Assembly (NCBI GenBank): GCA_000004695.1
Contig: CM000152.2
Location: forward strand, 6,144,001 to 6,208,000
Length of the DNA: 64,000 nt
Source: Dictyostelium discoideum
Lineage: Eukaryota
Reading direction: 5' to 3'
Positions 641 to 35,193 of this stretch are shown piece by piece (the first letter of the stretch is position 1; each line of letters opens with the position of its first letter). The notes under the pieces are model-generated. The model was not told the DNA's origin and did no database searches. It was given only the letters and a program-made list of their open reading frames with translations. The translations under genes and the position numbers were made by a program.

Positions 641-703
<63 letters not shown>

Positions 704-981: not shown

Positions 982-1035
<54 letters not shown>

Positions 1036-3704: not shown

Positions 3705-6679
3705 TTATTTTTTAGATTTTCTAAATGTTCTATACACAAAGATTTTGAAACGAAGGGATTTGGACAAGGCAATTTTTAAAATAATAATTGCAGAAATAAA
3801 AAATACAACAGAACCAACGATAATACCAGCTAATTGACCTTTAGTTAAAGATGATTCGGATGATGAGCAAATTGAATTTGGAGAATTAGAATTTACAGCT
3901 TGGTTATCTAATAAAAGTGAAAAATCAGGATCTATAGTTACAGAGGTTTCATATTGACCAACCACAATACCAATATACGATTGCACATTATTTTCATTTG
4001 ATATTGAATTTAATTTTGAATCTAATAATTCATTTGTGATTGTTACTATTTTCCCATCAACAATACCACGTTTTAAAAATCTACCATAAATACTATTACT
4101 TGAAACTTGAAGTTTAATATAATTTGAATTATCTAATGTTGTATCACCAAATTCTTTACCTGAACAAATATCATTTTCATTTGATTGAATTTGAGCTTCA
4201 ATTATAACTTGTAAATTATTTAATTTATTTGAGAATTTATATGATGATAATTCTACTGTATATTTAATTGTTGATGGATTCATTATTAATTCTTGATTTG
4301 CAAATGTAATATTACTTTTTTTTTCAAACCATTCTAATGTTACATTAATTGTTGTTGTTATGTTATTATTAATAATTGTTGATTGATAATTTAATATTGT
4401 TGATGAAATACTATTATAATACCATTTATCAATATAATGAATTTTAACTTGTTCACCATTGATTGAATTTACTTCTCTAATTGCTATAATTGATATATTA
4501 CTTTTAACTTGATAATTATTATTAACATTACTAGAATTATTATTGCTATTATCAATAACTGTAGTCAGTTTATCTTCTTTGGTTTTGGTTGTGGTATAAT
4601 TATAACTTTTGAGCTACAATCTAAACCAACATAAGGAGAATAACAAATACCACCTACATTTTCTTTACAATAACCTTGTTCCGAACTACTACATACTGGA
4701 TTACCTAAACAAATTTGAGGTTTATTAGTTGGTGTTGGTGTTGATGGGGTTGGAGTTGGAGTTGGAGTTGGGGTTGGGGTTGAAAATTGAAAATTATAAA
4801 TGGTTGGAGTAATTGTAAAATTATTAGAACTTTCAAGTTTAATTGTGTTATAAACTTCAATATTATTTTTAATAATAATTTCATTAGTATTGGTAACCCA
4901 AATTGAACAATATCATAAACAATTTCAAAAGCACCTTCTATAATTGACCCTGATATTAATTTATCAGAATAATATTGATTAAATCTTTGATCATCATTTG
5001 TTGGTATTTGAATAAATCATACCATATTTATCAAACTTGAAATCTAAGAAAAAACTTAAATTCTGTTAGAAAGATAACTTTAGAATCTATTATTTGTGGA
5101 ATTGATAATTCAATATTTGAATTTAATGCTGTGACAGATATATCTAAACCAACAGAACCTTCTGTTTTACATATATAACTATAATTTTTTTGAAGTTAAA
5201 CCAGATACTGGTACTGATATTCCTAATACATAATTTGGGTTACTACCTCTTAGAAATCCATATGGGAATGATTTAAACTATATTTCTGATTTCCATTATA
5301 GAATTGATTATATTCATGATTATATGGTGCTACTCCTACAGTATCCTCTATACTAAACATATTCATTATATCAATTTCAATTGGAACATTATAAAAACTT
5401 GAACTTGGAATTGGTGATCCTCCAATCACTATACAAATATAACTATTAATTTAAATGATTCATTTTATGTAATACATATATATATATATTAATAATACAT
5501 ACATTTTAAATTTGTTTTAAAATCAAAACTTTCAAATGTTGAATCTTCTTTTCTTCTTAAGAGTGTATCATTTCTTTTTTCAGAATTAGGTTGGACAAAA
5601 CAAATATAAGTCATTTTACCTAAATTACCATAAATCGGTTTTGAAATAGAGTAATAATAAATTCCTTGATTTAAAATTACTACTGGGTATACAACTCTTT
5701 GTAATAATGAACTTGATTGGAATGTTATAATAGTTCCTAAAAATTCGCCCTCAACTGAAGCACTTCCCAATGGATTTTGTTTTAAATTTAAAATTTCATG
5801 TGAATTTGTATTTCTACCAATATATTCCAAATATAAATATAAGCAAACAAAAAAATAAATAATAAATATGTAAATATAAATTCTTTTTTTTTTATTATTA
5901 TTATTTATTGTAATTTTATAAAATACTTACTTGTTGTATTGTATGGTACTAAAATTGTTAAATTTTTATTATTTGAAAAATTTAATTCTGTTTCCCAAAT
6001 TGAAAAGTTTGATGTTTTCAAAATATAATACTTTTCTGTATACTTTATACGAAACATACTTTGACCAAGTGATGTTATTTTAAATAAAGTAGAATCATAG
6101 AATTCACTGATACTAATAGAATCAGGAAAATCTTCTAATTTAAAGATTGATGAAAATTTTAATATTGAACTCCATGTCACATCTTGAATAATGATATATG
6201 AATTTACTTGAAAACCTATACAACAATTAATAAATAAAAAAATGAAAAATGTTACAAAAAATGAAAAGTGTTACAAAAAATAAAAAATGAATAATAAATA
6301 GTAAAAATAATAATTTAATTGATATTTAATATTTACCTTTACATTTAAAATCAATTGTTAAATTATCTTTTAATATATCATTATTTACAGAAAAGTTTAT
6401 TTGATTAGTCCCAACATAAACGTAACTTGTACAAGTAAATAAAGTTGCAGTATTATTTTGACTGGAAATAGAACAACCAATTCCAGAATTCAAATTATTA
6501 ATTGGTTCCGTTGAATTTGTAGCAAGAACAATAAAAACTGTATAGCAAATATTAGTTTTTGTTGTATAGAATTTATGGGTTTCACTTAAATCAAAAAGGG
6601 TGAACTCTTTTCCATTTACAAAAATAATTAAAAAAATTATTACAAAAAAAAAAATAGAAAATATTTTATTTTTAATCAT
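3705..6679 (-). pseudogene. Heavily decayed paralogue of the 5-exon IPT/EGF-like membrane-glycoprotein family. A signal-peptide exon (6326..6679) and the C-terminal EGF/TM part (3705..4283) are recognisable. The middle is riddled with deletions and stops.
   Basis: 3705..4283 translates almost identically to the C-terminus of the 841-aa ORF at 16620..19145 (…ICSGKEFGDTTLDNSNYIKLQVSSNSIYGRFLKRGIVDG…TM…KSKK). 4283..5450 aligns to copy 1 but has no ORF of 60 aa or longer and is about 1.4 kb shorter. 6326..6679 encodes a signal peptide plus a Cys-containing N-terminal segment similar to exon 1 of the other copies. Confidence 0.6.
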
Positions 6680-7207
6680 TTTTATTTTTACTAAAAAATA
6701 AAAATAAAAAAAAAAAAAAATAAAGTTATAATTAATATATTATTAATATTTTTTTTTTTAATCCTTTTTTTAAATAAAAAAAAAAAAAAAAAAAAAAAAT
6801 TATTTTTAACAGATATTTGTTCTTTGAAAATGAGAGGGTTAGCACAAAAAAAAAAAAAATATCTTAAAAAATCGTAAAAAAGTTTTTTATTTTTTTAATA
6901 TTATTGTTATTTAAAATATCAAAACATAAATAAATTGGCCTTTTAAAAAAAATAATGACAATGAAGAGTTTAAACTGATTCTCTCATTTATCTTTTTTTT
7001 TTTTTTTATATTTTTATTCTAGCCTTCAAAAAATCTTCAAAAGCCAATCATTTGAACCTAAATCAAAAAAGGTGGACTCTATTAAATTTACAAAAAATAA
7101 TTAAAAAACCTATTGCAAAAAAAAAAGATAATTTTTTAAATTTGATCTTACTTATAATAAAATATAAATAATAATAATAATAGTTGTTTTTTTATTTTTT
7201 ATTTTTT

Positions 7208-8251
7208 TTAATAACAAATAATAATAAAAAATATAAAAACAGTAATAATTTTAACAATTTGACCTTTGAATAAAAATGATAATGAAGAAGAAGAAGAAGA
7301 AGAAGAAGAAGTTGATGATTCACTATTTATTTCAGATAATGGTGAGCAAATTGAATTTTTTGAATTGGAATTTGCTGCTTTCTCTAATGAAAGTGAAAAA
7401 TCAGCATTGAAAATTAGACTTGATTGATAAAAAGGAACCGAAATACCAATATATGATTCCACATTATTTGCTTTGGAATTAAAATCAGTAGGATATAAAC
7501 TATTTACTATTGTTGGATAGTTTTCACCATCAGCCAAACAATTTATTGGGAATCTACCTAAAAGAGTATTGTTTGAAACTTGAAGTCTAACATATCTAGA
7601 ATCATCTGGTTCTATTGTATAACCAAATTCTTTACTTGAGCAAATAGGATTATTGGTTTCATTTAATTGGACTTGAACTTTAAATATAATTTGTAAAACA
7701 TTTAAATGGCCTCCAAAAGCAAATGGAGAGAGATTAACTGAATATTTTATTTTTGAAAATTCTTGATCTTCAATTAATTCTTGTATTACATTAACTGTTG
7801 TTGTTACACCACCTTTTTCAATTGTTGTTTGATAATTTAAAATTTTATATATTGAACTACCTGATATTCTCTGAATATTAAGATTATAACTAGTCACTGT
7901 TTCACCATAAACATCAAGTTCTCTGATTTCAGTTAATAAAATAACATATGGCGTTGTTGTTGGTGTTGGTGTTGTTGTTGGTGTTGGTGTTGGTGTTGGT
8001 GTTGGTGTTGGTGTTGGTGTTGGTGTTGGTATAATTATAACTATTGAAGTACAATCAATGCCTGTATAAGGTGTATAACAAATACAACCAATATTTTCTT
8101 TACAATAACCTTGTTCTGGTCCACCACATATTGGATTACCTCGACAATTTTGAAGTGAATTGGTTGGAGTTGTTGTTGGTGTTGGTCCTTGACCTCTAAT
8201 TAAAATAAAACAAAAGAAAAAAATAAAAAGGGTGGATAATCTGTAAAACAT
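7208..8251 (-). CDS. Compact single-exon secreted/type I membrane protein of about 348 aa. Order: signal peptide, Thr/Pro linker, one EGF-like Cys module, (PT)n linker, a roughly 200-aa juxtamembrane domain, TM helix, very short tail. It corresponds to the stand-alone C-terminal module of the large family.
   Basis: The likely start is the internal Met 'MFYRLSTLFIFFFCFILIRG', since the upstream part of the listed ORF is poly-K/F junk. It contains 'CRGNPICGGPEQGYCKENIGCICYTPYTGIDCTS', (PT)n, then 'EIRELD...VTSY...', and ends in a hydrophobic helix. This is homologous to 8994..10040 and to the C-terminal 330 aa of 16620..19145. Confidence 0.6.
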   Translation of the reverse strand: MFYRLSTLFIFFFCFILIRGQGPTPTTTPTNSLQNCRGNPICGGPEQGYCKENIGCICYTPYTGIDCTSIVIIIPTPTPTPTPTPTPTPTPTTTPTPTTTPYVILLTEIRELDVYGETVTSYNLNIQRISGSSIYKILNYQTTIEKGGVTTTVNVIQELIEDQEFSKIKYSVNLSPFAFGGHLNVLQIIFKVQVQLNETNNPICSSKEFGYTIEPDDSRYVRLQVSNNTLLGRFPINCLADGENYPTIVNSLYPTDFNSKANNVESYIGISVPFYQSSLIFNADFSLSLEKAANSNSKNSICSPLSEINSESSTSSSSSSSSSLSFLFKGQIVKIITVFIFFIIICY

Positions 8252-8557
8252 TTTTTTTTTTTTAACATAAAAAATAAAAATAAAAAAAAAAAAAAATTGA
8301 AAAACAAAAGTATTGAATAAAAAAAAGAAGTTTTCTTTTTGTTTTTTTTTTTGAATTTTTTTTTTTAGAATTTGCATTTTTTTCTAAGGGGAGCTTCATA
8401 GAAAATAAAAAATTAAAAGTAAAAAAAAAAAGAGGCGACAACCCACCAGCACTGCATAAAATTACTTTTCTCCACTTAAATGCTGAAATTATTACACCAA
8501 ACACCTTAATTTTTTCACAAAGAAGATATTTTAGAATTTGAAAGAATATTTAGATAT

Positions 8558-8607
<50 letters not shown>

Positions 8608-8993
8608 AAGGTGTAAATAATGGTAGTTAATTAAATTAATTTTTTTTATTTTATATTTTTTTCATTTAATTATACACTTATATTTTTTTTTTTCAGTTTT
8701 AAAAATTTTTAGTTCTAATTATTTGAATCTTTTAATCCAAAAAATAAAAGAAGTCTTGTTATTTTTTAAAAAAAAAAAAAAAAAAAAATCCCAATCAACT
8801 GCACTTAAATCAAATAATGGTTAATTCTATACCATTTACAAAAACAATTAAAAAACTTATTTCAAAAAAAAAAAAGATAATATTTTAAATTAATAATTAC
8901 TAATAATAAAATTAAAAATAAAAATAAAAATAATAATAGTTTTTTTTTTATTTTTTTTTATTTTTTTTTGCCTTTTTATTTAATTGTTCACAA

Positions 8994-10040
8994 TTAACAA
9001 ATAATTATTAAAAATATAAAAACAGTAATAATTTTAACAAATTGACCTTTGAATAAAAATGATGATAATGAAGAAGAAGAAGAAGAAGAAGTTAATGACG
9101 ATTCACTATTTTCAGATAATGATGAGGATGGAGATGAACTAGATTGTGATTCTTCAGATGGTGAGCAAACTGAATTTGGTGAATTAGAATTTGCTGCTTT
9201 CCCTAGTGAAAATGAAAAATCAGAATCAAAAATTATCCATGATTGATAATTAGGAATTGAAATACCAATATGTGATTCCACATTATTGGCTTTGGATTTC
9301 AAATCGCCAGAATCTAAACTAATTGATGATGTTGATATGATTTTAGCATCAGCGAAACAACTATTTGGGAATCTACTTAAAAGAGTACTATTTGCAACTT
9401 GAAGTCTAACATAGCTAGAATCATCTGGTTGTGTTGTAAAAGCATATTCTTTACTCGAGCAAATAGTCGTATTACTAGTTTCATTTAATTGAACTTGTAC
9501 TTTAAATATAATTTGTAAAACATTTAAAGCACTTTGAAAAGCATATTGTGAGAGATTAACTGAATATTTTATTTTTGTTAATTCTTGATCTTCAAGTAAT
9601 TCTTTTGTTACATTAACTCTTGTTGTTACACCACCTTGTAGAATTGTTGTTTGATAATATGATATATTGTTTAAATTTCCTATTATTCCCCAATTAGTAA
9701 GAATATGACTAGTCACTGTTTTACCATCAAAATCAAGTTCTCTGATTTCAGTTATTAAAATAACATATTCACTATTACTATCATCATCGATTTCAGTGTT
9801 TGGTGCCTCTTGTGATGATATTGGTGTTGGTATAATTATAACTTTTGAAGTACAATCTAAACCTACATAAGGTGAATAACAAACACAACTATTTTCGAAA
9901 CAATAACCTTGTTCTGGTCCACCACATATTGGATTACCTTGACAATTTTGAAGTGAATCAGTTGGCGTTGTTGTTGGTGTTGCTTTAATTAAAACAAAAT
10001 AAAAGAAAAAAATAAAAAGGAAGGATAATCTGGAAACCAT
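8994..10040 (-). CDS. Second compact EGF-like/TM family member (348 aa, single exon). Order: signal peptide, 'CQGNPICGGPEQGYCFENSCVCYSPYVGLDCTS', acidic insert, juxtamembrane domain, TM.
   Basis: Full ORF with an N-terminal signal peptide (MVSRLSFLFIFFFYFVLIKA), a C-terminal hydrophobic anchor, and block-wise identity to 7208..8251 (…QTTI..GGVTT.VNV..EL.EDQE..KIKYSVNLS..AF…). Confidence 0.65.
   Translation of the reverse strand: MVSRLSFLFIFFFYFVLIKATPTTTPTDSLQNCQGNPICGGPEQGYCFENSCVCYSPYVGLDCTSKVIIIPTPISSQEAPNTEIDDDSNSEYVILITEIRELDFDGKTVTSHILTNWGIIGNLNNISYYQTTILQGGVTTRVNVTKELLEDQELTKIKYSVNLSQYAFQSALNVLQIIFKVQVQLNETSNTTICSSKEYAFTTQPDDSSYVRLQVANSTLLSRFPNSCFADAKIISTSSISLDSGDLKSKANNVESHIGISIPNYQSWIIFDSDFSFSLGKAANSNSPNSVCSPSEESQSSSSPSSSLSENSESSLTSSSSSSSLSSFLFKGQFVKIITVFIFLIIIC
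9049..9246 (+). other. Antisense low-complexity ORF (poly-Glu/Asp), not a gene.
   Basis: It lies wholly inside the Ser-rich region of the minus-strand CDS 8994..10040, and its composition is the complement of (TCT/TCA)n. Confidence 0.7.
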
Positions 10041-11211: not shown

Positions 11212-11891
11212 TTAACAAGATATTTTTGAGATCTTGTTACAATCCCAAATTGCAAAGCTGAAAACTGAGTTTAAAATACTATCTTGATTAAATAGATTAT
11301 AAAAATCACTATCTTGAAATGTTTTTGGATCGATTAATGTAAAACCAATTGGTAAATTCAGGTATTTATCTATATTATTAAAATTAAAATATATTATATT
11401 ATCAACTATTAGATCTGTAATATCTACATCATTAAACATAAAAGAAATATCTTTTTAATCTTTTAAATTATCAACACCTATAGATTATTTAATTTTTTTT
11501 AATTATTTAATTAGTTGGTAAATTATATTAAAATTTTCAATTTTTTTGATTTAACTTACTTTTTAATTGTATTGATGATAAAATTACTTGAATATTATGT
11601 GAATAAATGGAGCCTTCTCGATTTGGACTATAAAGTGAAAATGCATCTAAATGATTAAAAAAACCATCTGGTTATTTGTTGAACCATATTTAACGGCATC
11701 GTATAATATTTCAAAAACACCATTTTTAATATTACCAGGAACCAATGACTCTACATGAAATTCCAAAACATTATTATCAATAATTTATACCATATGTATC
11801 TAATATTATAAATCTAATAAAATAATAGAAATTACTTAAATATATGGTTTCATATGATTTTAAGATTGGTATAGTAGCGTCATTGACTATA
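11212..11891 (-). pseudogene. Fragment of a family member (start of exon 5 'MFNDVDITDLIVDNIIYFNFNNID...', intron 4 and the 3' part of exon 4), interrupted at 11891 by a TIR element. A 60-bp tail of the same exon resumes at 14087..14150.
   Basis: The 75-aa ORF 11212..11439 is about 75% identical to the start of 16620..19145. 11440..11885 aligns to the copy 1 intron 4/exon 4 sequence (19184..19620) with indels. Homology stops abruptly at the element boundary and at about 11235. Confidence 0.55.
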
Positions 11892-12397
11892 TGTCCCATG
11901 CCAAAATTACCATATTAATTTCAGCAGCCATATTAATTTTGGCATGGGACTTAGGTCTGCCAAAATTACCTTATTAATTTCAGCAGCCATATTAATTTCA
12001 GCATGTACATAGCTGCCAAAATTAATATGGTAATTTTGGCATAGAAAAAAAAAAAGTCAAAGTCATTTAATTAATAATCATCTCAAATATAAACAAAATT
12101 TTAGTACTAAAATTAATATTATTATTATTTTTATTTTAATAATTATAATAATAAAAAAAAAAAAAAAAAATTTTCATATTATTTTATTTATATCTTTTAT
12201 TTATTTTTATCTTTTTATTTTTATTATTAATTTTATAATTTATTTTCATTTCTTTTTTTTTTAGTTGAAAAAAATTTTTTTATTATTCATTTATTTCTAA
12301 GGCTAACAAAAAAAAAAAATTAAAAATAAAAAAAAAAAATAAAATAAAAAAAAAAAAAAAAAAATTAAAATAATTTTTTTTTTTTAATTTTTTTTTT

Positions 12398-13064
12398 TTA
12401 ATTATCTACTCTTCTACTTACTCTTTTGTTACTAACAGATGAAGTTTCGTTTGAAAATCTTTTGGTGAAAAAATCAGCATCAGATTGTAATTGATTAGCT
12501 CTTTTTTTACCCGTTTTGTTTTTGTTTGATTGAGTTGTGATTCCACCATTATTGGAAGTTGTTGCAGCTTCATGTGTTGATCTAACTTCGGTGGTAGAGT
12601 GCTCGATTGCTTTTCCAACTAGGTCATCTGTTGATTTTCTTTTGGTTATTTCGATATCCCTTTGCAATTTATTTTTACTTGAGAGTTTGGTGGCCTCTAT
12701 TCTAGAAGTAGGCTCAGTATTGTAATAAGCCTTTATAATAGCAGAATGACTATCTGCTTTATAATGATTACTGATGTGCTGTTGACACTGGTTTTGATTA
12801 ATCATATGAGAGACACCATCTTCATCTTTGTTAAGCCTAACCTTCTCTATAATCTTCACTAAGTCTTTTGGGTACCAATTTTTTCTTTTTATCTTTATCA
12901 ATATAAAACACTTCTTTAATAGTTGCCGTACCATATTCTACATTCTCAACAACATACTGTTTATCCAAAATGTTTTTCCAATAGCTTGTATTTTGTCCAC
13001 TCAATTTGGTATTATGAAATTTATAATCTATTTTAAATTTTACATCTTCGTCATATTTTTCCAA
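12398..13064 (-). CDS. ORF(s) carried inside the TIR element. A 75-aa ORF (12837..13064) and a 178-aa ORF (12398..12934) overlap in different frames and are probably one frameshifted or spliced gene. The product is basic and Ser/Thr/Lys-rich, with no recognisable DDE or other transposase motif.
   Basis: Two adjacent minus-strand ORFs with non-repetitive composition (MEKYDEDVKFKIDYKFHNTKL...; ...NWYPKDLVKIIEKVRLNKDEDGVSHMINQNQ...) lie between the inverted repeats. No match to any transposase family I can recognise by eye. Confidence 0.3.
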
Positions 13065-13354
13065 GAGTTTTTTTAATTTATTTTTATTATTTTTTCAATT
13101 TCTGTTGCAGAAAGTTGATTATTTAATTTATTGTCTTTACTGAAGACCATTTTTTGGAACGAAAACTTTAAAAAAATAAAAAAATAAAAAAAAAAATACT
13201 TTTTTTTTTTAATTTTTTTTTTTATATTTTTTTTTTTATATTTTTTTTTTTTAAATTTTTTTTTTTAATTTTTTTTTTTTATTTTATTTTTTTAAAGTTT
13301 CGAACAATTATATATAAAAAAAAAGTAAAAGATATCCCTTCGGTTAATTAAATA

Positions 13355-13362
13355 ATAGTAAT

Positions 13363-13406
<44 letters not shown>

Positions 13407-13408
13407 TA

Positions 13409-13500
<92 letters not shown>
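13355..13500. repeat. (AAT)n microsatellite of about 145 bp inside the TIR element.
   Basis: Direct reading: aataataataat… with one interruption. Confidence 0.9.
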
Positions 13501-13505
<5 letters not shown>

Positions 13506-14371
13506 CTTAAATATACAAAAAAAAAATAAAAAAATAAAAAAATAAAAAAAATAAAAAAAAAAAAATAGAATGAAATGAAATAAAATAAAATAAAAAAAAG
13601 AAATACAGAATTTCTTTAAAGAAACTTATTTCGAAATTGTTTAAACAATCATACAGTTTAAAATTAAATAAATTGTTTTAAACCACCACTTTTTTTGAAC
13701 ACATGAAAATAAATAAGAAATAAAAATAAAAAGATAAAAAAAGATTTTTTTTTTTTTTTTTATTTTATAATTATTCTTGTCGTCAGTATTGTTACTATAA
13801 TTAATCCCATGAGTTTTTTTTTATTATTATTTTTAATTCTTTTATATTTGAGATGATTATTATTAATTAAATGACTTTGAGTTTTTTTTTTTATTTTTCT
13901 ATGCCCAAAATTACCATATTAATTTCAGCAGCCATATTAATTTCAGCCTAAAATAGTTGGTCTGTGCATGCCAAAATTAATATGGCTGCTGAAATTAATA
14001 TGGTAATTCTAGCAGACATAAGTCCCATGCCAAAATTACCATATTAATTTCAGCAGCCATATTAATTTTGGCATGGGACAACTATACTCGAAGGTGTCAC
14101 TTGTGACTTTAGATAGAAACATTTGAAAATATAGTAAAAATGGATAAAAAAAAAAGAAAATAAAATAATTAAAAAAAAACCAAATAATAAAAAGTTTCAT
14201 TCAATATATATATATTTTTTTAGTATTTATTTTATTTTAATAAAATATGTTAAAAATTATAATGTTTCAATTTTTAATATATTTATTATTTTTTTTTTAT
14301 TATTTTTTATTTTATTTTTTAATATATTTTGTTGTAGGGAATTTTTTTTGATATTTCGCTTTCTAAACGGC

Positions 14372-14424
14372 AGTGAATTTTTACACTAAAATACACTATT
14401 TATACATAGTGTAAAAATTCACTA
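14372..14424. repeat. Perfect 16-bp inverted repeat (AGTGAATTTTTACACT / AGTGTAAAAATTCACT) around a 21-bp loop. It is an isolated hairpin in AT-rich intergenic DNA.
   Basis: Direct reading of 14372..14387 and 14409..14424. Confidence 0.8.
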
Positions 14425-14733
14425 AAAATTTTTTTTTTTTTTTATAAATTAAAAACAATTTATTTAATCAAAATAATAAAAAAACTAATTTTGAACAATT
14501 ATTTGTTGTTTAAGAATTAAATAACAATTTAAATTGTTAGATTTGAGCCAATTTTTTTTATTTTTTTTATTTTTTTATTTTTTTTTTAATAATTTATAAA
14601 ATGGCATTGCAAACTTTTATTAAAATTTAATTGTGAGAAATTTTACTATTGTAATTTCACGGGAAAAAAAAACCTAGTAAAATGTTAAAATATAATTAAT
14701 TAAATTAAATTTTAATAAAAGTTTGTAATGCTA

Positions 14734-14925
14734 AATTTGAGAGTCATCTTACTCTCAAATTATTTAAATAATTTAATTTGAGAGTCATCTTACTCTCAAA
14801 TTATTTAAATAAATTTTTTATTTTTTTATTTTTTTTTTAATAATTTTTAAATAAATTGTTATTTAATTTTTATTAATTTATTTAAATAATTTGAGAGTCA
14901 TCTTACTCTCAAATTATTTAAAATA
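14734..14925. repeat. Three copies (two tandem, one 75 bp further on) of a 38-bp unit 'AATTTGAGAGTCATCTTACTCTCAAATTATTTAAATAA'. Each unit contains its own 9-bp inverted repeat (TTTGAGAGT/ACTCTCAAA). The last copy abuts the truncation point of a gene copy.
   Basis: Units are at 14734..14772, 14775..14813 and 14888..14925. The 3' half of the unit (ctcAAATTATTTAAAatacatac) resembles the end of intron 3 in intact copy 1 (ctctAATTATTTAAAatacatac at 20056..20078). Confidence 0.65.
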
Positions 14926-15686
14926 CATACTTGTATAGTTTATAAAAATTGGAATACCTTGATAAGTTGTATCATTTATTTGTTCATAAAGAGAATAATT
15001 TTGTAAACCAGCGTTTAAAACCGAAAGGTAACTAATGTATGTCATATTACCCTATTGATCAAGATATAGGACTTGGTAAAGTTGAAATTATTTGGTCACT
15101 TAAAAAAATCAATGGATTAATTGGTCTTTGTAATGATGATATTGATTTAAGTTTTATAACACTTCCCAAAAATAAATTAGTTTCGCAATGGCCATCATTT
15201 GGGAATTGGATTAATTCTACAATTTCTCCATTCTTATTACTATTTTTATATTATTTTAAATTAATACAAACTATATTAATAAAATGAATTTTTTAAAAAA
15301 AAAAATAAAAAAAAGCTTTTTTTTTTCTGGAATTGTTTAAAAAATCAATTTTATAAAAAATTATAAAAGTAATAAAATCTTATTTGTTATATTATATGGT
15401 ACTGAAATATTGACCAGAATTATTAAAAGATATTTCCCAATTAGAGTTTGATAATCTTGGAATATAAAAATTTTCATAATATCGAATTCTATAATAATTT
15501 TTACCAAGTGATACTAAATCAAATGAATAATAACTATCAATAGTATTAATTCTAGTTGAATCTAAAAAACCATTTAGTTTAACAATTGATGAAAATTTAT
15601 TAACTATACTCCATGTTACTTGTATTATTTCAATATTAAAATAGTAATAATAATAATGGTAATAAACAATTGTATTAGTTGTTTTG

Positions 15687-15729
<43 letters not shown>

Positions 15730-16092
15730 AAGAGATTTATAATTACTTTTACATTCATAATTAAATAAAAATGAACCTTTTGAATATCATTGTTTACAAA
15801 AAAGGTTGTTGAATAGTTTGAAAAATTAAGAACATAAAAAAGTTGATGAAGTTATATTTACTTCTATAAAAAAACAAGACATATTGTCACCATCTAATGT
15901 TTGTATAGAATCTGTAGTTTCATTTATTTTTTGAACTAAAAATAAAAGATTGTATGCCGGACAATATGCATTTGGTGTTAATTCTGGATAAAATATATTT
16001 ATTCTATCTAAATAAGTTATTGAATAATTTAGTCCTTTTATTAATAAAATAAATGATTATATTAAAAGGTTGATAATTCCAAGTTTAACCAT
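14922..16092 (-). pseudogene. Truncated 5' half (exons 1-3) of a family member. It begins with ATG (MVKLGIINLLI) but has an in-frame TAA in the signal peptide. Its 3' end is replaced by the palindromic tandem repeats.
   Basis: 14922..15290, 15380..15640 and 15740..16092 align to copy 1 exons 3, 2 and 1 (20079..20414, 20493..20768, 20895..21274) with introns in the same places. 'ATGGTTAAACTTGGAATTATCAACCTTTTAATATAA' contains a stop. No exon 4/5 homology lies downstream. Confidence 0.55.
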
Positions 16093-16372
16093 TTTAAAAG
16101 TAGAATTGTTTAATGTTTTTTTTGTTTTAAATTCGACCCGAGAGGAATTTTAAAATTTGTGAAAAAAATTTTTGGGGAAAAAAAAAAAAAAAATTTAATC
16201 GTAAATCCAAATGCTCAAATTTTTAAATTCCATCAAGCCAAACTTCGAACAAAAAAAAAATAGGATTTTTTTTTCTAAAAATAAAGATATTTTTTGGGCG
16301 TGAAATAGATAATTAAGTCTAATAGTCATTTTTTTTTTTTATTAATAATAAAAATTTTTTAATTGAATTTTT

Positions 16373-16419
<47 letters not shown>

Positions 16420-16619
16420 AGGAATATTCAATAAAACAATCAATTTAAAGAATAAAAAAAAAAAAATAAAAAAAAAAAAAAACAAAAAAAAGAGAATAAT
16501 TTTTGTCTGTTTGTAAAGGATTTATTTATTTATTTATTTTTTATCAATAAAATAAATAAAAAAAAAAAAAAAGAATAATTTTTGGTTTGCAAAGGATTTA
16601 TTCGTTTTTTTCTTTTTTA

Positions 16620-19183
16620 TCAATAAGTCTTCTTTGATTTTTTGAAGATTTTATAAATAATGATTCTAATATGAATTGATTTTGAGAAGAGAATTATTCC
16701 AACAATTATAACTAAAACTATGAAAAATACAATAGAACCAACAATAATACCAGCTAGTTGACTTTTGGTTAAAGATGATCCGGATGATGAGCAAATTGAA
16801 TTTGGGGAATTAGAATTTACAGCTTGATTATCTAATAAAAGTGAAAAATCAGGATCTATAATTACAGAGGTTTCATATTGACCAACCACAATACCAATAT
16901 ATGATTGTACATTATTTTCATTTGATATTGAATTTAATTTTGAATCTAATAATTCATTTGCGATTGTTACTGTTTCACCATCAACAATACCACGTTTTAA
17001 GAATCTACCATAAATACTATTACTTGAAACTTGAAGTTTAATATAATTTGAATTATCTAATGTTGTATCACCAAATTCTTTACCTGAACAAATATCTTTT
17101 TCATTTGATTGAATTTGAGCTTCAATTATAACTTGTAAATTATTTAATTTATTTGAGAATTTATATGATGATAATTCTACTGTATATTTAATTGTTGATG
17201 GATTCATTATTAATTCTTGATTTGCAAATGTAATATTACTTTTTTTTTCAAACCATTCTAATGTTACATTAATTGTTGTTGTTATGTTATTATTTATAAT
17301 TGTTGATTGATAATTTGATATTGTTGATGAAATACTATTATAATACCATTTATCAATATAATGAATTTTAACTTGTTCACCATTGATTGAGTTAACTTCT
17401 CTAATTGCTATAATTGATATGTTACTTGTAACTTGGTAATTATTATTAACATTACTAGAATTATTATTTTTATTATCAATAATTGTAGTTGGTTTATCTT
17501 CATTTGGTTTTGGTTGTGGTATAATTATAACTTTAGAGCTACAATCTAAGCCAACATAAGGAGAAAAACAAATACAACCAACATTTTCTTTACAATAACC
17601 TTTTTCTGAACCGCCACATACTGGATTACCTAAACAAATTTGAGGTTTATTAGTTGGTGTTGGTGTTGGAGAAATGGTACTTGTTGGTGTTGGAGTTGGT
17701 GCTGAATAATTGAAATAATAAACTTTTGGGAAAATAGTAAAAGTGTTTGATAGAATAGTTGGTTGCTGAATATTGGTTAAATGTACATTGATTGAATCGT
17801 TTGTTGGTTTAATATTTTTAATTAAAATTACAGAATCACTCGGTACTGTCATTGCTGAAGAATAAGATTCACCATTACTTGATAATATCACAACTTTATT
17901 GGTTGATTTAAAACCTCTACCATATAACCAAAGATCACCACCATCATTATCTATAGCAGATGAGTCAGTAATGATTGGTTGAGTTACTGAAAACTCTTTT
18001 GTTTCTACAAACCAAGTAAAACCTGAATCTTTTAAATCACTTGCGCTATAACCTCTATATGATCCACCTCTATTAATAAATCCATAAACTGAAATTAAAA
18101 ATCCATATGGATGTGAAAATCCAATTGGTACTTCCATTGTGCATGTGTATTCAATATCTGTTCTATTCTTTGTAACAATGGTTGAAATACATTCATGAAT
18201 TCTTGAATTCATATCTGTTATATATACTATTGGATATTGATCATCTTTTAAACCGTCTAAATCCTGTGCATCAAAATCAAATACTATTAATCTATCTAAT
18301 GACCCAACATCAATAGATGATCTTGATACCCAAAATCTTTTTAACTCTGGTAGTGGTGAATCAATTTGATTACACATATTTAATGTTGAAACTTGTAATA
18401 TTGACATATCATTAAGATAATTAATAAATGGATTCGCACTTGAGTCAAGGCTAATTTGCCCATCCAATTCAATATTTGTAAGACGTTTATAATATTTATT
18501 TACATTACCAAATGTATCAATGAAAACTGCATAATAAATTTCATAATTTTGAGGTACACAATCATTTAAAATATATGGTATACTTATTATATAATTTCCT
18601 TTCCATTTATCACCACTACCAACTACCATATCACTTAATTCCAATGTATAATTATATAATGAACTATCAATCGAACCTCTAATAGTAACATATCCATCTT
18701 TGAAACCATTAATTTCATCTTCAATTGTAAATAACCATCCTAATGTTGTGTCTGGATATTTAACTATACTTGTAACTATTGGACCATAACTATCGAATTT
18801 TGTATTATCAATTCTTAATTGGTATTCATCAGATAATTGAGTATTAAGTATATAATTCTCTTTATTAAATATTAACATCCAATCTAAAACACCTGGTGAT
18901 GTATTTGCTGGTATTTTAAATTTAATATAAAATCTTGAATTTATTTCATCCCAAATTGCAAAACTGTAAACTGAGTTTAAAATACTAACTTGATTATATT
19001 CATTAATAAAATCACTATCTTGTAGTGTTCTTGGGTCAGTTAATGTAAAACCAATTGGTAAATTCTTATAATTATCTATATTATTAAAACTAAAATATAT
19101 TATATTATCAACTATTTGATCTGTAATATCAACATCATTAAACATAAAAGAAATATCTTTTATATCTTTTAAATGGTCAACAC
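16620..19183 (-). CDS. Exon 5 (about 855 aa) of family copy 1, a large type I membrane glycoprotein. It has a roughly 550-aa ectodomain including an IPT/TIG-like segment ('PIITDSSAIDNDGGDLWLYGRGFKSTNKVVILS'), (TP)n linkers, the EGF-like module 'CLGNPVCGGSEKGYCKENVGCICFSPYVGLDCSS', a juxtamembrane domain, a TM helix and a basic tail 'KIFKKSKKTY'.
   Basis: An 841-aa ORF is preceded in frame by a CTATAG acceptor at about 19184. Domain calls come from cysteine spacing and hydropathy read from the translation. Paralogues elsewhere in the window conserve the same blocks. Confidence 0.7.
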
Positions 19184-19265
19184 CTATAGATTATTTAATT
19201 TTTTTTAATTATTTAATTAGTTGGTAAATTATATTAAAATTTTCAATTTTTTCAATTTAACTTAC

Positions 19266-20833
19266 TTTTTAATTGTATTGAAGGGAAAATTACTTGAATA
19301 GTATGTGATAAAATGGAGTAGTCTCGATTTGGACTATAAACTGAAGATGAGTCTAAGTGATTATAAAAACTTATTGAATTTTTTGTTGAACCATATTTAA
19401 CGGCATCGTATAATATTTCAAAAACACCATTTTTAATATCACCAGAAATCAATGAGTCTACATGAAATTCCAAAACATTATTATCAATAATAGTTTGAAA
19501 ATAATTTAAACCATATGTATCTGATATCATAAATCTAATTAAATAATTAAAATTATTTAAATATATGGTTTCATATGATTTTAAGATTGGTTTAGTTGTG
19601 TCATTGACAAAACTTGAAGGTGTCACTCGCAACTCTGGGCCATTTCCAGAAAGAAAGGTCATATGCAAGTAAAAATAATTTTTATTTGAAAAACCACGAG
19701 TTGGTAAAGACATTTTTATTTTGTAGTTTAAATTGTTTCCACTTGAAAATCCAAATGGAAATACTTGATATTTATTATCACCAAATATACCATCCCCATA
19801 GGAATACTTTAAGTATTGAGAATCATACTTGAATCCAATGTCACTATAAGACAATTCAAATGAATATAATGACATTGAACTAGTACTATTATCAACAGTT
19901 GTATTTATTATTGAAGATATTAAACCTTGATCAATTTGGCCTTTTCCAAAAAATTAAAAAAATTAAAAAAACAAGAAAATAAAAAAAAACATGAATTAGA
20001 ATTGTGTTTTAATTTTAATTAATAATAACAATAATAAAAATAATAATAATTTGCACTCTAATTATTTAAAATACATACTTGTATAGTTTATAAAAATTGG
20101 AATACCTTGATAAGCTGTGTTATTTATTTGTTCATAAAGAGAATAATTTTGTAAACCATCGTTTACAACCGAAAGGTAACTAATGTATGTCATATTACCT
20201 ATTGATCCAGAAATAGGTCTTGGTAAAGTTGAATACACCGAGTTAATTAAAACCAATGGATTAATTGGTCTTTGTAATGATGATACTGAATTAAATTTTA
20301 TAACACTTCCAAACAATAACATAATTTCACAATTGCGGCCATTTGGAAATTGGATTAATTCTACAATTTCTTCATTCTTATTACTATTTTTATATTCTTT
20401 TAAATTAATACAAACTATATTAATAAAATGAATTTTTAAAAAAAAAAAAAAAAAAAAATTAATTTTAAAAAATAATAATAATAAAATCTTACTTGTTATA
20501 TTATATGGTACTGAAATTGTTATTATTGTACCAGAATTACTAAAAGATATTTCCCAATTAGAGTTTGATAATCTTGGAATATAAAATTTTTCATAATATC
20601 GAATTCTATAATAATTTTTACCAAGTGATGTTAAATCAAATGAATAATAACTATCAATAGTAGTAATTATAGTTGAATCTAATAAACCATTTAGTTTAAC
20701 AATTGATGAAAATTTATTAACTATACTCCATGTTACTTCTTGTATTATTTCAATATTAATTTCATATCCTTATTATATTAATATTAAAATAGTAATAGTA
20801 ATAATAATAAATTGTATTAGTTATATATTTTGG

Positions 20834-20893
<60 letters not shown>

Positions 20894-21274
20894 CAGATTT
20901 GAGATTTATAATTCCTTTTACATTCATAATAAAATAAAAGGGAACTTTTTGAAATATCATTGTTAACATTAAAGGTTGTTGAATATTTGAAAAAATTAAG
21001 AGTTGCATATTCTGAGCAAAAAAAAGTTGATGAAGTTATATTCCTTCTATAAATAAACAAAACTGATTGTCACTACCTAATGTTTGTATAGAATCTGCAG
21101 TTTCATTTATTTTTGAACAAAGAATAAACGTTGGTATGAAGAACAATATGGATGTAATGTTTGTTCTGGATAGAATATATATATTTTATCTAGATAAGTA
21201 ATTGAATAATCTTGTCCTTTTATTAATAAAATAAATGTTAATAAAAAAAGCCTGATTATTCCAAGTTTAGCCAT
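19266..21274 (-). CDS. Upstream exons 1-4 of the same gene. Exon 4 is 19266..19940, exon 3 is 20079..20414, exon 2 is 20493..20768 and exon 1 is about 20895..21274 with the signal peptide MAKLGIIRLFLL… Exons 2-4 are open and phase-consistent. Exon 1 shows 1-nt and 4-nt indels relative to the paralogues, which create stops.
   Basis: Donors are GTAAGT (19265), GTATGT (20078) and GTAAGA (20492). Acceptors are AG at 19941, 20415 and 20769. Exon lengths satisfy phase (675, 336, 276). Exon 1 reads '...SSYQRLFFVQK*' because of a 1-nt shorter poly-A run than copy 3. A second 1-nt loss and a +4 insertion follow. Confidence 0.45.
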
Positions 21275-21774
21275 TCTAAAAGAAGAATTGTTTGATGGTT
21301 TTTTTTTATTATTTTCAGTTTGAACAAAAAAAATATGGTGAAAAATAAAAAATATTATAAAAAAAAAAAAAGTTTTTTGTAAAAACCAAATAAAAAAATA
21401 ATTTTTTTTTTTTATTTTTTTTTGTAAAAATAAGATATTTATAAAAGGGGCATTTGATCAAAAAAAAAAAAAAAAATCATACACAAAATTTTTTGAGATA
21501 TTTATTTTTATAAAAAATATCTCAAAAAAAAAAAAAGTTAACAGTAATATTTTTTATTTGTTTATTTTTAATGTTTTTGGTAATAAAAATTAATAAAAAC
21601 ATTTAAAATTATATTATATTTATTAAATAAAAAAAAAAAAAAAAAAAATAACTATTTCTTAATGTTTTGAACAAAAATTTTTTTTTTTTTTTTATTTAAT
21701 ATATATAATATAATTTTAATTTTAATGTTTTTATTAATTTTTATTACCAAAGAAGTCTCCTAAGGAAATTGCTG

Positions 21775-21809
<35 letters not shown>

Positions 21810-21918
21810 AACAGAAATATTTAATAAAGAATTTAATTTAAAGAATAAAAAAATGTTTAGAAAAAAAAAAAGAATTTTTGTTGGTCTGTAAAGGATTTAT
21901 TTTTTTATTTCTTTTTTA

Positions 21919-24900
21919 TCAATAAGACTTTTTTGATTTTTTGAAGATTTTATAAATAATGATTCTAATACGCACTGATTTTGAGAAGAGAATTATTCCA
22001 ACAATTATAACTAAAACAATGAAAAATACAATAGAACCGACAATAATACCAGCTAGTTGACTTTTGGTTAAAGATGATTCGGATGATGAGCAAATTGAAT
22101 TTGGAGAATTAGAATTTACAGCTTGATTATCTAATAAAAGTGAAAAATCAGGATCTATAGTTACAGAGGTTTCATATTGACCAACCACAATACCAATATA
22201 TGATTGTACATTATTTTCATTTGATATTGAATTTAATTTTGAATCTAATAATTCATTGGTGACTGCCACTGTTTTACCATCAACAATACCACGTTTTAAG
22301 AATCTACCATAAATACTATTACTTGAAACTTGAAGTTTAATATAATTTGAATTATCTAATGTTGTATCACCAAATTCTTTACCTGAACAAATATCATTTG
22401 TCAATATAATGAATTTTAACTTGTTCACCATTGATTGAATTTACTTCTCTAATTGCTATAATTGATATATTACTTTTAATTTGATAATTATTAACATTAC
22501 TAGAATTACTATTGCTATTATCAATAGCTGTAGTTGGTTTATCTTCATTTGGTTTTGGTTGTGGTATAGTAATAACTTTAGAGCTACAATCTAAGCCAAC
22601 ATAAGGAGAATAACAAATACAACCAACATTTTCTTTACAATAACCTTGTTTTGAACCACTACATACTGGATTACCTAAACAAATTTGAGGTTTATTAGTT
22701 GGTGTTGGTGTTTAAGTTGGAGTTGAAGTTTGAGTTTGAGTGGGTGTTGGTGTTGGAGTTGGAGTTGGTACCGAGTAATTAAAATAATAAACTTTTGGGA
22801 AAATAGTAAAAGTATTTGATAGAATAGTTGGTTGCAGTGTGAAAATCCAATTGGTACTTCCATTGTGCATGTGTATTCAATATCTGTTCTATTCTTTGTA
22901 ACAATGGTTGATATACATTCATGAATTCTTGAATTCATATCTGTTATATAAACTATTGGATATTGGTCATCTTTTAAACCGTCTAAATCATGTGCATCAA
23001 AATCAAACGTTATTAATCTATCTAATGACCCAACATCAATAGATGATCTTGATACCCAAAATCTTTTTAACTCTGGTAGTGGTGAATCAATTTGATTACA
23101 CATATTTAATGTTGAAACTTGTAATATTGACATATCATTAAGATAATTAATAAATGGATTCGCACTTGAGTCCTTGTAATTTGGTGGATTTAAATCAAAA
23201 TTTGTTTGACGTTTATAATATTTATTTCTATTACCAAATGAATCAATGAGAACTGCATAATAAATTTCGTAATTTTGAAATACAAAATCGTTTAAAATAT
23301 ATGGTATACTTATTATATAATCTCCTTTCCATTTATCACCGCTACCAACTACCATATCACTTAATTCCAATGTATAATTATATAATGAACTATCTACTGA
23401 ACCTCTAATAGTAACATATCCATCTTTGAAACCATTAATTTCATCTTCAATTGTAAATAACCATCCTAGTGTTGTTGTCAAGCTATGATCTTGATATTTA
23501 ACTATAATTGTAACTATTGGACCATAACTATCGAATTTTGTATTATCAATTCTTAATTGGTATTCATCAGGTAATTGAGTATTAAGAAAATGATTCTCTT
23601 TATTAAATACCAACATCCAATCTAAAACACCTGGTGATGTATTTGCTGGTATTTTAAATTTAATATAAAATCTTGAATTGATTTCATCCCAAATTGCAAA
23701 GCTGTAAACTGAATTTAAAGTATTAAATACTTCAAAGTTAATTCCATTATAGAAGTCACTATCTTGTAATGTTCTTGGATCGATTAATGTAAAACGAATT
23801 GGTAAATTCTTATAATTATCTATATTATTAAAACTAAAATACATTATATTATCAACTATTTGATCTGTAATATCAACATCATTAAACATAAAAGAAATAT
23901 CTTTTACATCTTTTAAATAATTAACATCTACATATTATTATTTATTAAGAATAAAGTAATAATAAATTATAGTTAATAGTTTTATTCATAAATATCGTCA
24001 TTTTTTTTTTTTTTTTTTTTTTACTTACTTTGTTCTATAGTTGGTAAATTAATTCTTAAATTTGGAGTTTCAATAGAGAAAGGTTGATTTTGGTTAAATA
24101 ACGATGACTTATCTAAATGATTATAAAAATAATATGAATTACTTGTTGAACCATATTTAATGACATCATAAAATATTTCGAAAACACCATTTTTAATATC
24201 ACCAAAAACCAATGACTCTACATAAAATTTAATTATTTTATTATCAATATTGACTTGAATAAAATTCAAACCATATGTATCTGATATTGTAAATCTAATT
24301 AAATAATTAAAATTATTTAAATAAATAGTATCAAATTCATTTAAAGTTGGTATGAAATTATTATTATTATTATTATTGATTAAATTTGAATGTGAAACTT
24401 GTAATGCCAAACCATTACTACCACCATAATCTGTCATTTGCAAAATAAAATATTGTTGACTTGAAAAACCACGATTTGGAACAGACATTTTCATAGTGTA
24501 GTTTAAATTATTTCCACTTGAAAATCCAAATGGAAATACTTTGTATTCATTCTCAGATTCTCTATTACCTCCTCCTCCTCCACTAAAATAGGTATACCAT
24601 TGAGAATCATATGTGAAATTAAAATCACTATACATTAATTCTAATGTATAAAATGGCATTGAACTATTACTATAATCAACACTTGTATACTTTATTAACT
24701 GTTTTAAAGAATAAGAATTTAAAACTTTTTATAACATTGGTTAGACCGATAATGATAAAAATAATGATAATATTAAAAAATACATACTTGTATAGTTTGT
24801 TGGAATTTGAATAGTTTGTAATGTTGAATCATCTTTTTGTTTATAAAGGGTATAATATTGTAAATAACTATATAAAACTGAAAGGTAATCAATGTAAGTG

Positions 24901-25105
24901 ATATTACCAATTGATCCAGATATTGGTCTTGGTAAAGATGATATTAAGATGTTGTTATTTAAAACTAATGGATTAACTGGTCTTTGTAATGATGATGTTG
25001 ATTTAAATTTTATAACACTTCCAAAAATATTTAAAACTTTACAAGTTCCATCTTTTGGAAATTGAACTAATTCATTAATCTCTTCACTATTTTTAAATTC
25101 TATAG

Positions 25106-25169
<64 letters not shown>

Positions 25170-25963
25170 ATTTTAAAAAATGAATACTAAATATTAATTA
25201 AAATTAATAATAATAATAATAATAATAAATTCTTACTTACTTGTTATATTATATGGTGTTGAAATTGTAATATTTGTACCAGAATTGTTAAAAGATATAT
25301 CCCATTTAGTTTTTAATAATCTTGAAATAAAATAACCTTCATAATATAGAATTCTATAATAATTTTTACCAAGTGATATTAATTCAAATAATTCTCCATC
25401 ATCACCATTATCAAGTAAATTAATAATAGTTGAATCTAATAAACCATTTAAATTTACAATTGATGAATATTTATGTACTATACTCCATGTTACTTCTTGA
25501 ATTATTTCAATGTTAATGCTAAATTCTAAAAAAAAGATTAGTGACATATATATATATAAATTATAAAATAATGAATGGTATTATAATTATAATTACTTTT
25601 ACATTCATAATTAAAAGTGAACCTTTTGAAATATCATTGTTTACAAAAAAAGAAATACTTGAGTTTGTTGAAAAATTGATATTTTGATTTTCAAAGCATA
25701 AGAAAATTGATGATGTTGAATTTCCAACTATTAATGAACAAACTTGATTATCAATACCACTTAATTTAGTAATTGGATTTGCAGTAACACTTGTTTTTTT
25801 AACTAAAATATAATATTGAGGTATTTCACATTATTTATTTGATGTTTTGGTTGGATAGAATGTATTTGTGTTATCCAAAAAACTTAAGATGTAATCTTGA
25901 CCTTTTACTAATAAAATAAATAATAATAATAAAAAAAGAATTAAAATTCTGAGTTTAGCTATC
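21919..25963 (-). pseudogene. Tandem paralogue (copy 2) of the 16620..21274 gene, now decaying. The start codon is mutated (ATA), exon 1 has an in-frame TAA, and exon 5 has a roughly 250-bp and a roughly 330-bp deletion plus a TAA (22710..22720).
   Basis: ORFs 21919..22431, 22675..23889, 24021..24659 and 25233..25547 are each over 85% identical to segments of copy 1 but are in different frames. 22431..22445 jumps from the copy 1 equivalent of about 17095 to about 17350. 22830..22850 jumps from about 17765 to about 18110. 'ATAGCTAAACTCAGAATTTTA' aligns to 'ATGGCTAAACTTGGAATAATC'. Confidence 0.65.
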
Positions 25964-26765
25964 TAAAGATTAGCTATTATTATTATTATTATTGTTTTTT
26001 TTTTTTTTTTCATTTTTTTTTTCATTTTTTGACCACGAACCAAAGGATATTTTTTTTTTTTTTTTTTTGGTGGTTTCGTGATTACTTTTTTTTTTTTTTT
26101 TATTTTTTTTTTTTTAATTTTATTATTATTATTGATAAAAAAATAAAAGCTTTTTATTTATATTTTTTAAAAAAAAATTAAAAAATTAAAAAAAGTTAAA
26201 TAAAAAAAAAAAAAAAAAAAGAAACTTTACTCAATTTTGATATTTGATTTTTGTGTATGTCAATATTATTTAGTTTTTTCATTTTATGAAATTTGGCATT
26301 TGATAATCAAATTAAGTTGACATTTTTTTTTTTTTTTAATTTTTTTTTCCAAAGTCAGAACAAAACAAAAAAAAAAAAAAAATTGAAAAAAAAAAAAAAA
26401 TTGAAAAAAAAAAAATTAAAAAAAAAAAAAATTAAAAAAAAAAAAAAATAAATTAATTTTAAACAAATTATTTAATAAAAAATTAATATCAATCAATTAA
26501 TTTGTTTCTTTTATCAAAATTATTTTTTTAATTTTTTAAAAAAAATTTTTTTTTTTGTTTTACTCATATTTTTTCATTTTTTTTTTTTTTTTTTTTTCAT
26601 TTATCAAATATCAAATACATACACCCACTCACACTTTTATATCTGCACAAAACGCGTATATATTTTATATATTAAATTTGTTTGTGTATATATATATATA
26701 TATATACATTAAATATATAAATATATAAATATAGTGTATATATATATAAAATTTCGAACGAAAAA

Positions 26766-35193
<8,428 letters not shown>

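Follow-up and report, generated by a model that had tools for sequence, protein, structure and literature searches.

A tandem array of ComC-family surface-glycoprotein genes in Dictyostelium discoideum that evolves by birth and death

Is a 22-kb run of related and partly broken genes on one strand of Dictyostelium discoideum chromosome 3 a gene family in turnover, a self-recognition locus, a row of dead genes or an artefact of assembly? The run lies in a stretch of 64,000 nucleotides of the AX4 reference (contig CM000152.2, positions 6,144,001 to 6,208,000; hereafter the window), which has ~20% GC in a genome of ~22% GC. A preliminary description, made from the letters alone, had presented it as seven loci of a membrane-glycoprotein family with IPT/TIG-like and EGF-like segments, comparable to tgr-like recognition receptors. 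Our analysis shows that the region is a genuine tandem cluster of ComC-family surface-glycoprotein genes, part intact and part decayed. That the array as a whole evolves by birth and death, with gene conversion confined to one protein module, is a reading that we hold with high confidence.

Family homology is confined to positions 3673-25998 and lies on the minus strand throughout (self-BLASTN and TBLASTN over the whole window; E-values down to 0); the same searches found zero family homology in the remaining part of the window. The TBLASTN query was P0003, an intact 1414-aa orthologue from another isolate, whose five-exon structure was worked out at its own locus and then projected onto every copy. 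The self-comparison of 3.7-26 kb recovers the previously proposed family blocks nearly to the base and agrees with a head-to-tail, same-strand array of ~22 kb (3705-25962, minus strand). The earlier count of seven related loci holds for homology blocks, of which there are seven, but not for separate genes, of which there are six, the '5' half' and the 'bisected fragment' being two parts of one decayed gene (copy C). Of the six units, B is dead, A is full-length, C is decayed and split by a transposon, D and E are compact genes, and F is compressed by deletion. AX4 gene models in the array are DDB_G0282707, DDB_G0282809, DDB_G0282709, DDB_G0282701 and DDB_G0282703. The features are as follows.

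25962-21919, minus strand: copy B, a pseudogene, from lesions relative to an intact orthologue
25962-25597, 25525-25237, 25117-24788, 24709-24023 and 23924-21919, minus strand: exons of copy B
21274-16620, minus strand: copy A, full-length five-exon ComC-family gene DDB_G0282707, from open reading frame (ORF) match, Pfam and exon projection
21274-20915, 20768-20493, 20414-20079, 19937-19263 and 19180-16620, minus strand: exons of copy A
20899-21115, minus strand: cluster of 11 changes within 215 bp relative to the independent assembly L006, in copy A exon 1
14931-16092, minus strand: copy C 5' block, exons 1-3 of a decayed gene, from TBLASTN with orthologue residues 1-329
14736-14925, no strand assigned: three copies of the 36-nt palindromic unit TTTGAGAGTCATCTTACTCTCAAATTATTTAAATAA, beginning in intron 3 of copy C
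~14088-14140, minus strand: small exon 4 remnant of copy C, beside the inserted element
11892-14081, no strand assigned: putative internally deleted Tdd-4/Tdd-5-type (Ginger2) DNA transposon of 2.19 kb, in copy C exon 4
11242-11891, minus strand: copy C middle block, running from the 3' part of exon 4 through intron 4 into the beginning of exon 5, from TBLASTN with residues 434-629
8994-10040, minus strand: compact gene D (DDB_G0282701), 348 aa, single exon, intact ORF, DUF7949 at E=3e-15
7208-8251, minus strand: compact gene E, 347 aa from the Met at 8251, single exon, intact ORF, DUF7949 at E=6e-14
6679-3705, minus strand: copy F, a deletion-compressed pseudogene, from alignment to the intact orthologue at locus L004
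6679-6338, 6216-5932 and 5824-5504, minus strand: open exons 1-3 of copy F
5440-4832, minus strand: exon 4 of copy F, with six small frameshifts
4832-3705, minus strand: exon 5 remnant of copy F, with a 1-bp frameshift at 4578

The assignment to a family comes from Pfam profiles. Copy A matches DUF7743, DUF7035 (110.1 bits), DUF7034 (117.6 bits), DUF7949 (52.8 bits) and ComC_SSD, all above their gathering scores. ComC_SSD (PF22933) scores 43.4 bits against a cut-off of 24 in exon 5 of copy A (E=4e-11) and 31.4 bits in the 3' ORF of copy F (E=2e-7); it is not listed in our scan of the full 1403-aa protein P0036, and the precomputed Pfam annotation of the orthologues contains it. DUF7949 (PF25820) is found in A, D and E, with E-values between 3e-15 and 6e-14, and its six cysteines are invariant across 29-32 homologues. 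In the ectodomain, DUF7743, DUF7035 and DUF7034 follow one another in that order, which the orthologues share, and the precomputed annotation adds DUF8390 between DUF7034 and DUF7949. An exhaustive HMMER search returned 798 cluster representatives at E<=1e-3; all 10 of the 10 looked up are dictyostelid, with eight from other species and one D. discoideum cluster (the other species include T. lacteum, H. album, A. subglobosum, P. violaceum, D. purpureum and D. dimigraforme). By these profiles, the family is the ComC family as Pfam defines it. A search with a profile of the full-length alignment gave, among the 8000 candidates that it covered, only close relatives and no named ComC, so that ComC itself would be a distant paralogue of the array genes.

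The array genes resemble ComC in that all family domains are above threshold and in the same order, together with a signal peptide and a single transmembrane (TM) helix. They differ in two respects: (i) the paralogues here are uncharacterised 'hypothetical proteins'; and (ii) the compact form is a truncated architecture (signal peptide, EGF knot, supersandwich and an end like that of a glycosylphosphatidylinositol (GPI)-anchored protein). ComC reportedly belongs to the same developmental pathway as lagC (tgrC1). A third difference lies in distribution, since the table entry for comC lists it, with signal peptide, TM helix and EGF domains, for group 4 only (PMC4931340), whereas relatives of the array family also occur in groups 2 and 3. 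Beyond this table entry, the literature searched on comC with lagC or tgrC1, and on the array gene IDs, gave nothing usable.

The full-length members are predicted to be single-pass type I membrane glycoproteins. Their membrane-distal part consists of a signal peptide, an N-terminal region of ~330 aa without Pfam match, and DUF7743, DUF7035 and DUF7034; their proximal part consists of one immunoglobulin (Ig)-like (TIG/FN3-like) domain, DUF7949, ComC_SSD, a TM helix and a short basic tail. The order given in the preliminary description agrees with this for the signal peptide, large ectodomain, Ig-like segment, EGF-like knot and TM helix, but it omitted the supersandwich of ~235 aa between EGF knot and TM helix, and its 10-aa basic tail corresponds to the last 10 residues of a cytosolic tail of ~21 aa. 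Among the domains that it had named, the EGF-like knot has a significant model (DUF7949), whereas classical EGF models (EGF_2, Tenascin EGF and Teneurin EGF) are far below their cut-offs and PF01833 (TIG) has no match at E<=1 on any ORF and none at E<=10 on the full protein or the isolated segment. The AlphaFold model of the 'TIG-like' segment is an Ig-like sandwich (residues ~11-100, pLDDT, i.e. predicted local distance difference test, 82-92). Its Foldseek matches in the Protein Data Bank include CGTase domain D (E=2.5e-4), EBF1 TIG (TM-score 0.65) and CAMTA1 TIG (TM-score 0.67), and also many FN3 domains, with overall E of ~1e-4 to 1e-3. Judged from this model, the label 'TIG-like' is fair for the fold but not for family membership, and the fold class is not TIG-specific.

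We compared the window with the syntenic loci L001/L002, L003, L004, D. dimigraforme and L006, where A, C and F denote the copy types of the window. L006 is an independent chromosome-level D. discoideum assembly that is collinear with window positions 31299-6407 at 99.3-99.7%. The other loci contain:

L001/L002: a single intact A-type gene, a C copy interrupted by ~9.4 kb, a single compact gene and an F orthologue whose gene model has 1458 aa
L003: one A-type gene, a C copy represented by two gene models, a pair of compact genes and a gene of F type, whose model runs together with the second of the pair
L004: two A-type genes and F, all three intact, plus a single compact gene
D. dimigraforme: five or more full-length genes in a row

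Copy content at the syntenic locus differs in every lineage compared. As both copy number and integrity vary between lineages, the array evolves by birth and death. Gene gain, loss and module shuffling, as anticipated earlier, are seen in the differing copy content and in the mosaic histories of the copies. The isolates are diverged across the whole locus (dS, i.e. synonymous divergence, ~0.09 in the flank), so that this represents turnover between lineages rather than demonstrated polymorphism within the species. Against L006, the one near-conspecific assembly, the family coding sequences of AX4 have no differences except a cluster in copy A exon 1 and three mismatches in copy B.

Two flanking genes bound the array and were used solely as synteny and rate controls. 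One (28168-34485, plus strand) has a 2105-codon ORF belonging to a gene of ~2700 aa, which every isolate conserves; the other (529-2082, plus strand) encodes a 517-aa Asn-rich protein with an NF-YA/HAP2-like motif. Within the C split of L001/L002 (combined coordinates ~17757-27116) there are ORFs of 236 and 155 aa.

Three of the units in the window record the loss of copies. Copy B is annotated in AX4 as two pieces, DDB_G0282809 (824 aa) and DDB_G0282709 (170 aa, ORF 21919-22431). It was already suspected to be an inactivated tandem copy with an ATA start and two exon 5 deletions. The alignments show the start codon changed from ATG to ATA and, in exon 5, two frameshifting deletions (343 bp and 251 bp; junctions close to 22836 and 22400), and add frameshifts in exons 1 and 2. 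These lesions recur in L006 (collinear, 99.6%). Copy F likewise proved to be the third copy compressed by deletions: a 1613-bp deletion at 4832 joins exon 4 to the middle of exon 5, and the same deletion is seen relative to L001/L002.

Copy C is the most fragmented. Its 5' block has frameshifts of 14 bp, 1 bp, 8 bp and 1 bp and stop codons in every frame, and its middle block also carries frameshifts and stops. The copy is broken off at 11242, and positions 11244-10732 match the 3' flank of a family gene in L001. The palindromic repeats in which the 5' half had been said to end are indeed present: the 36-nt unit has three matches where 0 are expected by chance, and of the loci compared, the AX4-like assembly alone contains it. 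An extra hairpin, GTGAATTTTTACACTA...TAGTGTAAAAATTCAC, lies at 14372-14425, within ~600 bp of AT-rich sequence (14140-14736) that separates the palindromic units from the exon 4 remnant. Stretch and hairpin may be the trace of another insertion.

The exon 4 remnant and the middle block of copy C flank the element at 11892-14081, in accordance with the earlier proposal of a fragment bisected by an element with terminal inverted repeats (TIRs). The element ends in an identical 47-nt sequence at 11893-11939 and 14022-14068, and its inverted ends extend over ~320-380 bp (11892-12210 and 14080-13703, self-BLASTN). It is flanked by the direct repeat ACTAT(A), a 5-6-bp target duplication; when one copy of this repeat is removed together with the element, the sequence aligns base for base with copy A exon 4. 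The element ORF (12398-12934, DDB_G0282703, 178 aa) is 98% identical to the first 169 residues of DDB_G0270824, an integrase-domain protein of 769 aa, and has several near-identical copies elsewhere in AX4. TDD-4 and TDD-5 are D. discoideum DNA transposons with Gypsy-like integrases, TIRs of 260-297 bp and 5-bp target-site duplications (PMC2836005). Sharing with them long inverted ends, a 5-6-bp target duplication and an ORF that nearly matches the N-terminus of an integrase-domain protein, the element is by these characters an internally deleted member of the TDD-4/5 (Ginger2) group. It differs in being 2.19 kb long, against ~3.8 kb for full elements, and in retaining the N-terminal 169 residues alone; the integrase catalytic region is deleted, so that the element would be unable to move on its own. 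The AX4 Tdd element is missing from the corresponding locus in isolate L001/L002. Both ends of the element are themselves near-palindromes of 58 nt.

Copy A had been described as a copy with exons 2-5 open at 16620..21274, and the exon projection supports this. Its exon 5 contains an 841-codon ORF (16620-19145, minus strand) that is 100% identical to DDB_G0282707 of AX4, and exons 2-5 are open over >1,200 codons. In exon 1, the reference has 1-bp deletions at 21115 and 21043 and a donor changed from GT to GG at 20914. These belong to the 11-change cluster, which adjoins a poly(T) tract of ~60 nt and whose effect in the reference copy is two frameshifts and one lost splice donor. The lesions are seen only in the AX4 reference: exon 1 is intact in L006, whose copy A product is the intact 1403-aa protein P0036. 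At every site of the cluster L006 matches the divergent isolate L001. In the full list of differences between AX4 and L006, the cluster is the main run within family coding sequence, to which copy B exon 1 adds the three mismatches; nearly all remaining differences are homopolymer lengths or lie in low-complexity non-coding sequence, and the flanking ORF of L006 has zero differences from the window over 1044 codons. Because the lesions are absent from near-identical L006, which agrees with L001, they are most probably sequencing errors or very recent changes, and copy A is probably intact. We therefore flag a probable error in the AX4 reference, by which the DDB_G0282707 model is shortened from ~1403 aa to 1117 aa. 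In the AX4 lineage, A would then be probably an intact full-length gene, D and E intact compact genes, and B, C and F dead.

Long A/T homopolymers that differ in length between AX4 and L006 are found in introns or flanks at 20838-20898, 25146-25167, 16410-16418, 15720-15727 and 8599-8605, and make up the majority of the differences between these assemblies. Gene conversion from copy C was considered as the source of the exon 1 changes in copy A and rejected, because copy C retains the GT donor that is missing in the reference copy A.

The compact genes are a derived form with a different end. E is a paralogue of D with 77% nucleotide identity and the same layout, i.e. a signal peptide, a Thr/Pro linker, DUF7949, a supersandwich core, a Ser-rich stretch and lastly a hydrophobic segment that ends the protein without a cytosolic tail. 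The two compact single-exon genes of the preliminary description are thus real, but they are not an EGF-plus-TM module: the supersandwich is also present, and the C-terminus is probably a GPI signal. The AlphaFold model of D has a beta-supersandwich core at residues 90-295 (pLDDT ~85-95) with weak fold matches to YidC P1, galactose mutarotase, GH36 N-domains and GLMP. ComC_SSD has no Pfam match in the compact genes, where this domain is divergent, but their identity to that region is 42-44% and the model folds as a supersandwich. In four lineages together, six compact genes were compared, and every one retains the signal peptide, the six cysteines, the Ser-rich stretch and the terminal hydrophobic segment, in ORFs of 336-348 codons. 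Their ratio of nonsynonymous to synonymous divergence (omega) is ~1.05 overall and 1.25 in the supersandwich. Neutral drift would be expected to produce 7-14 nonsense changes per compact-gene pair (P 1e-3 to 1e-6). As the ORFs are retained despite this expectation, the compact genes are, on their coding sequences, functional and fast-evolving, and positive selection on them is suggested.

In L003 (21763-24599) and L004 (16568-22736), automated models fuse a compact gene with the next full-length gene (1718 and 1704 aa). These models lack the hydrophobic C-terminus of the compact gene and the signal peptide of the long gene, and are therefore probably annotation artefacts.

Evolutionary rates differ strongly along the long genes. 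When A-type paralogues are compared with F-type ones, dS is 0.8-1.2 over exons 1-4 and 0.5-0.85 over the Ig-like region; it drops to 0.06-0.10 within the supersandwich and is back up to 0.4-0.6 in the TM helix and tail; the same dip recurs within L004 and within D. dimigraforme. This more than 10-fold local fall in synonymous divergence points to gene conversion that would homogenise the EGF-supersandwich module among the long paralogues. In closer orthologue pairs, omega is 0.9-1.1 over most of exons 1-4, i.e. the membrane-distal half, and 0.5-0.8 against exon 4 of L004 and against D. dimigraforme. Omega is ~0.2 for the membrane-proximal domains and 0.27-0.41 for the flanking control gene, whose dS is likewise ~0.09.

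Several points weigh against this overall picture. As the window sequence stands, the reading frame of every long copy is interrupted, and the intactness of copy A rests on another assembly (L006). Membership in the ComC family depends on Pfam models that are named after ComC, and the GPI signal was called by eye. An omega of ~1 is equally expected under relaxed constraint; for the compact supersandwich, dN-dS has a 95% confidence interval of -0.013 to 0.080 and is not significantly above 0, and Nei-Gojobori estimates are rough in a genome of ~22% GC. In addition, the one short-read contig recovered (Logan, copy F exon 1) has genomic spacing and is unspliced genomic DNA.

Among the alternatives, the one that survives best is that of a tgr-like polymorphic locus for adhesion and self-recognition whose turnover is driven by kin discrimination. 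It has in its favour a surface-receptor architecture with an Ig-like domain and an EGF-like knot, a membrane-distal half with omega of ~1 in the closer comparisons, compact, probably GPI-anchored paralogues with omega of ~1 to 1.25 and ORFs kept, copy number variation from lineage to lineage, and the reported place of ComC in the developmental pathway of lagC (tgrC1). Like the tgr proteins, the array proteins would be developmentally relevant single-pass surface glycoproteins with Ig-like folds; both belong to large dictyostelid-wide families in clusters, and the distal ectodomain of the array proteins is also fast-evolving. However, PF01833 is without match at E<=10, there is one TIG-like Ig domain instead of a series, and a supersandwich is present. 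tgrB1 and tgrC1 are an adjacent, divergently transcribed pair, whereas the array genes all run head-to-tail in one direction with no divergent ligand-receptor pair. The divergence from the other isolates is the same as in the flanking gene, with no locus-specific excess, the coding sequence of near-conspecific L006 is identical apart from the exon 1 cluster of copy A and the three mismatches in copy B, and positive selection is not significant. The lack of significant PF01833 and classical EGF matches weakens the analogy with recognition receptors and leaves the turnover claim standing. We consider a tgr-like locus unlikely, and the earlier comparison gives way to the ComC family, to which the significant family-specific models belong.

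A bleaker reading is that all long copies are pseudogenes in this strain and that the compact ORFs were annotated by chance. A, B, C and F all carry disabling lesions in the window, the array gene IDs are without mention in the literature searched, and no evidence of expression was found (an exact sequence look-up of compact gene D gave no contig, and the contig for copy F exon 1 is unspliced). Set against this, the lesions of copy A are limited to 215 bp beside poly(T) and absent from L006, its exons 2-5 are open over >1,200 codons at ~22% GC, its membrane-proximal omega is ~0.2, and the retention of ORFs in the six compact genes has P of 1e-3 to 1e-6 under neutrality. This makes a wholly dead array very unlikely. 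That the copies are assembly duplications of one gene is almost certainly wrong and was rejected on copy divergence (self-BLASTN) and L006 collinearity: homopolymers and repeats abound in the region, and a probable local error cluster exists in the 2005 reference, but the copies are 66-91% identical, each with its own lesions, independent L006 reproduces the AX4 arrangement, and multi-copy arrays occur in other lineages too.

The reading that we favour is therefore a ComC-family tandem array in turnover. Copies would be born by tandem duplication through unequal crossing-over and are lost through deletions (251, 343 and 1613 bp), small frameshifts and the insertion of a Tdd-4/5-type transposon, while conversion would even out the EGF-supersandwich module among the long paralogues. 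The major histocompatibility complex, immunoglobulin and olfactory-receptor clusters of vertebrates are birth-and-death multigene families with partial gene conversion. The array resembles them in its tandem duplicates, pseudogenes and lineage-specific copy number, and in its mosaic histories, with one module homogenised and another diversifying; it differs in belonging to a dictyostelid family and in being far smaller. We regard it as an ordinary but well-resolved instance of gene-family turnover, with genes already annotated yet uncharacterised.

Judged from the ComC homology and the ectodomain architecture, the array proteins may act at the cell surface in developmental cell-cell communication or adhesion, and the modelled supersandwich fold suggests possible glycan binding. 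A more speculative and distinctly unlikely proposal is a second, ComC-based recognition or signalling system, in which the fast-evolving distal ectodomains of the long receptors and the likewise fast-evolving, probably GPI-anchored compact proteins would co-evolve as partners under diversifying selection, and conversion would keep the membrane-proximal supersandwich uniform as a signalling platform shared by all.

For facultative multicellularity and kin discrimination, dictyostelids serve as the principal model, and most members of their large surface-protein families are uncharacterised. The locus is a compact, fully resolved example of duplication, decay by deletion and transposon, and module-specific conversion that would act on such a family. 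It also shows a derived short, probably GPI-anchored form that evolves fast with its frame kept. Current concepts are unchanged by these results, and A, D and E are candidates for functional work.

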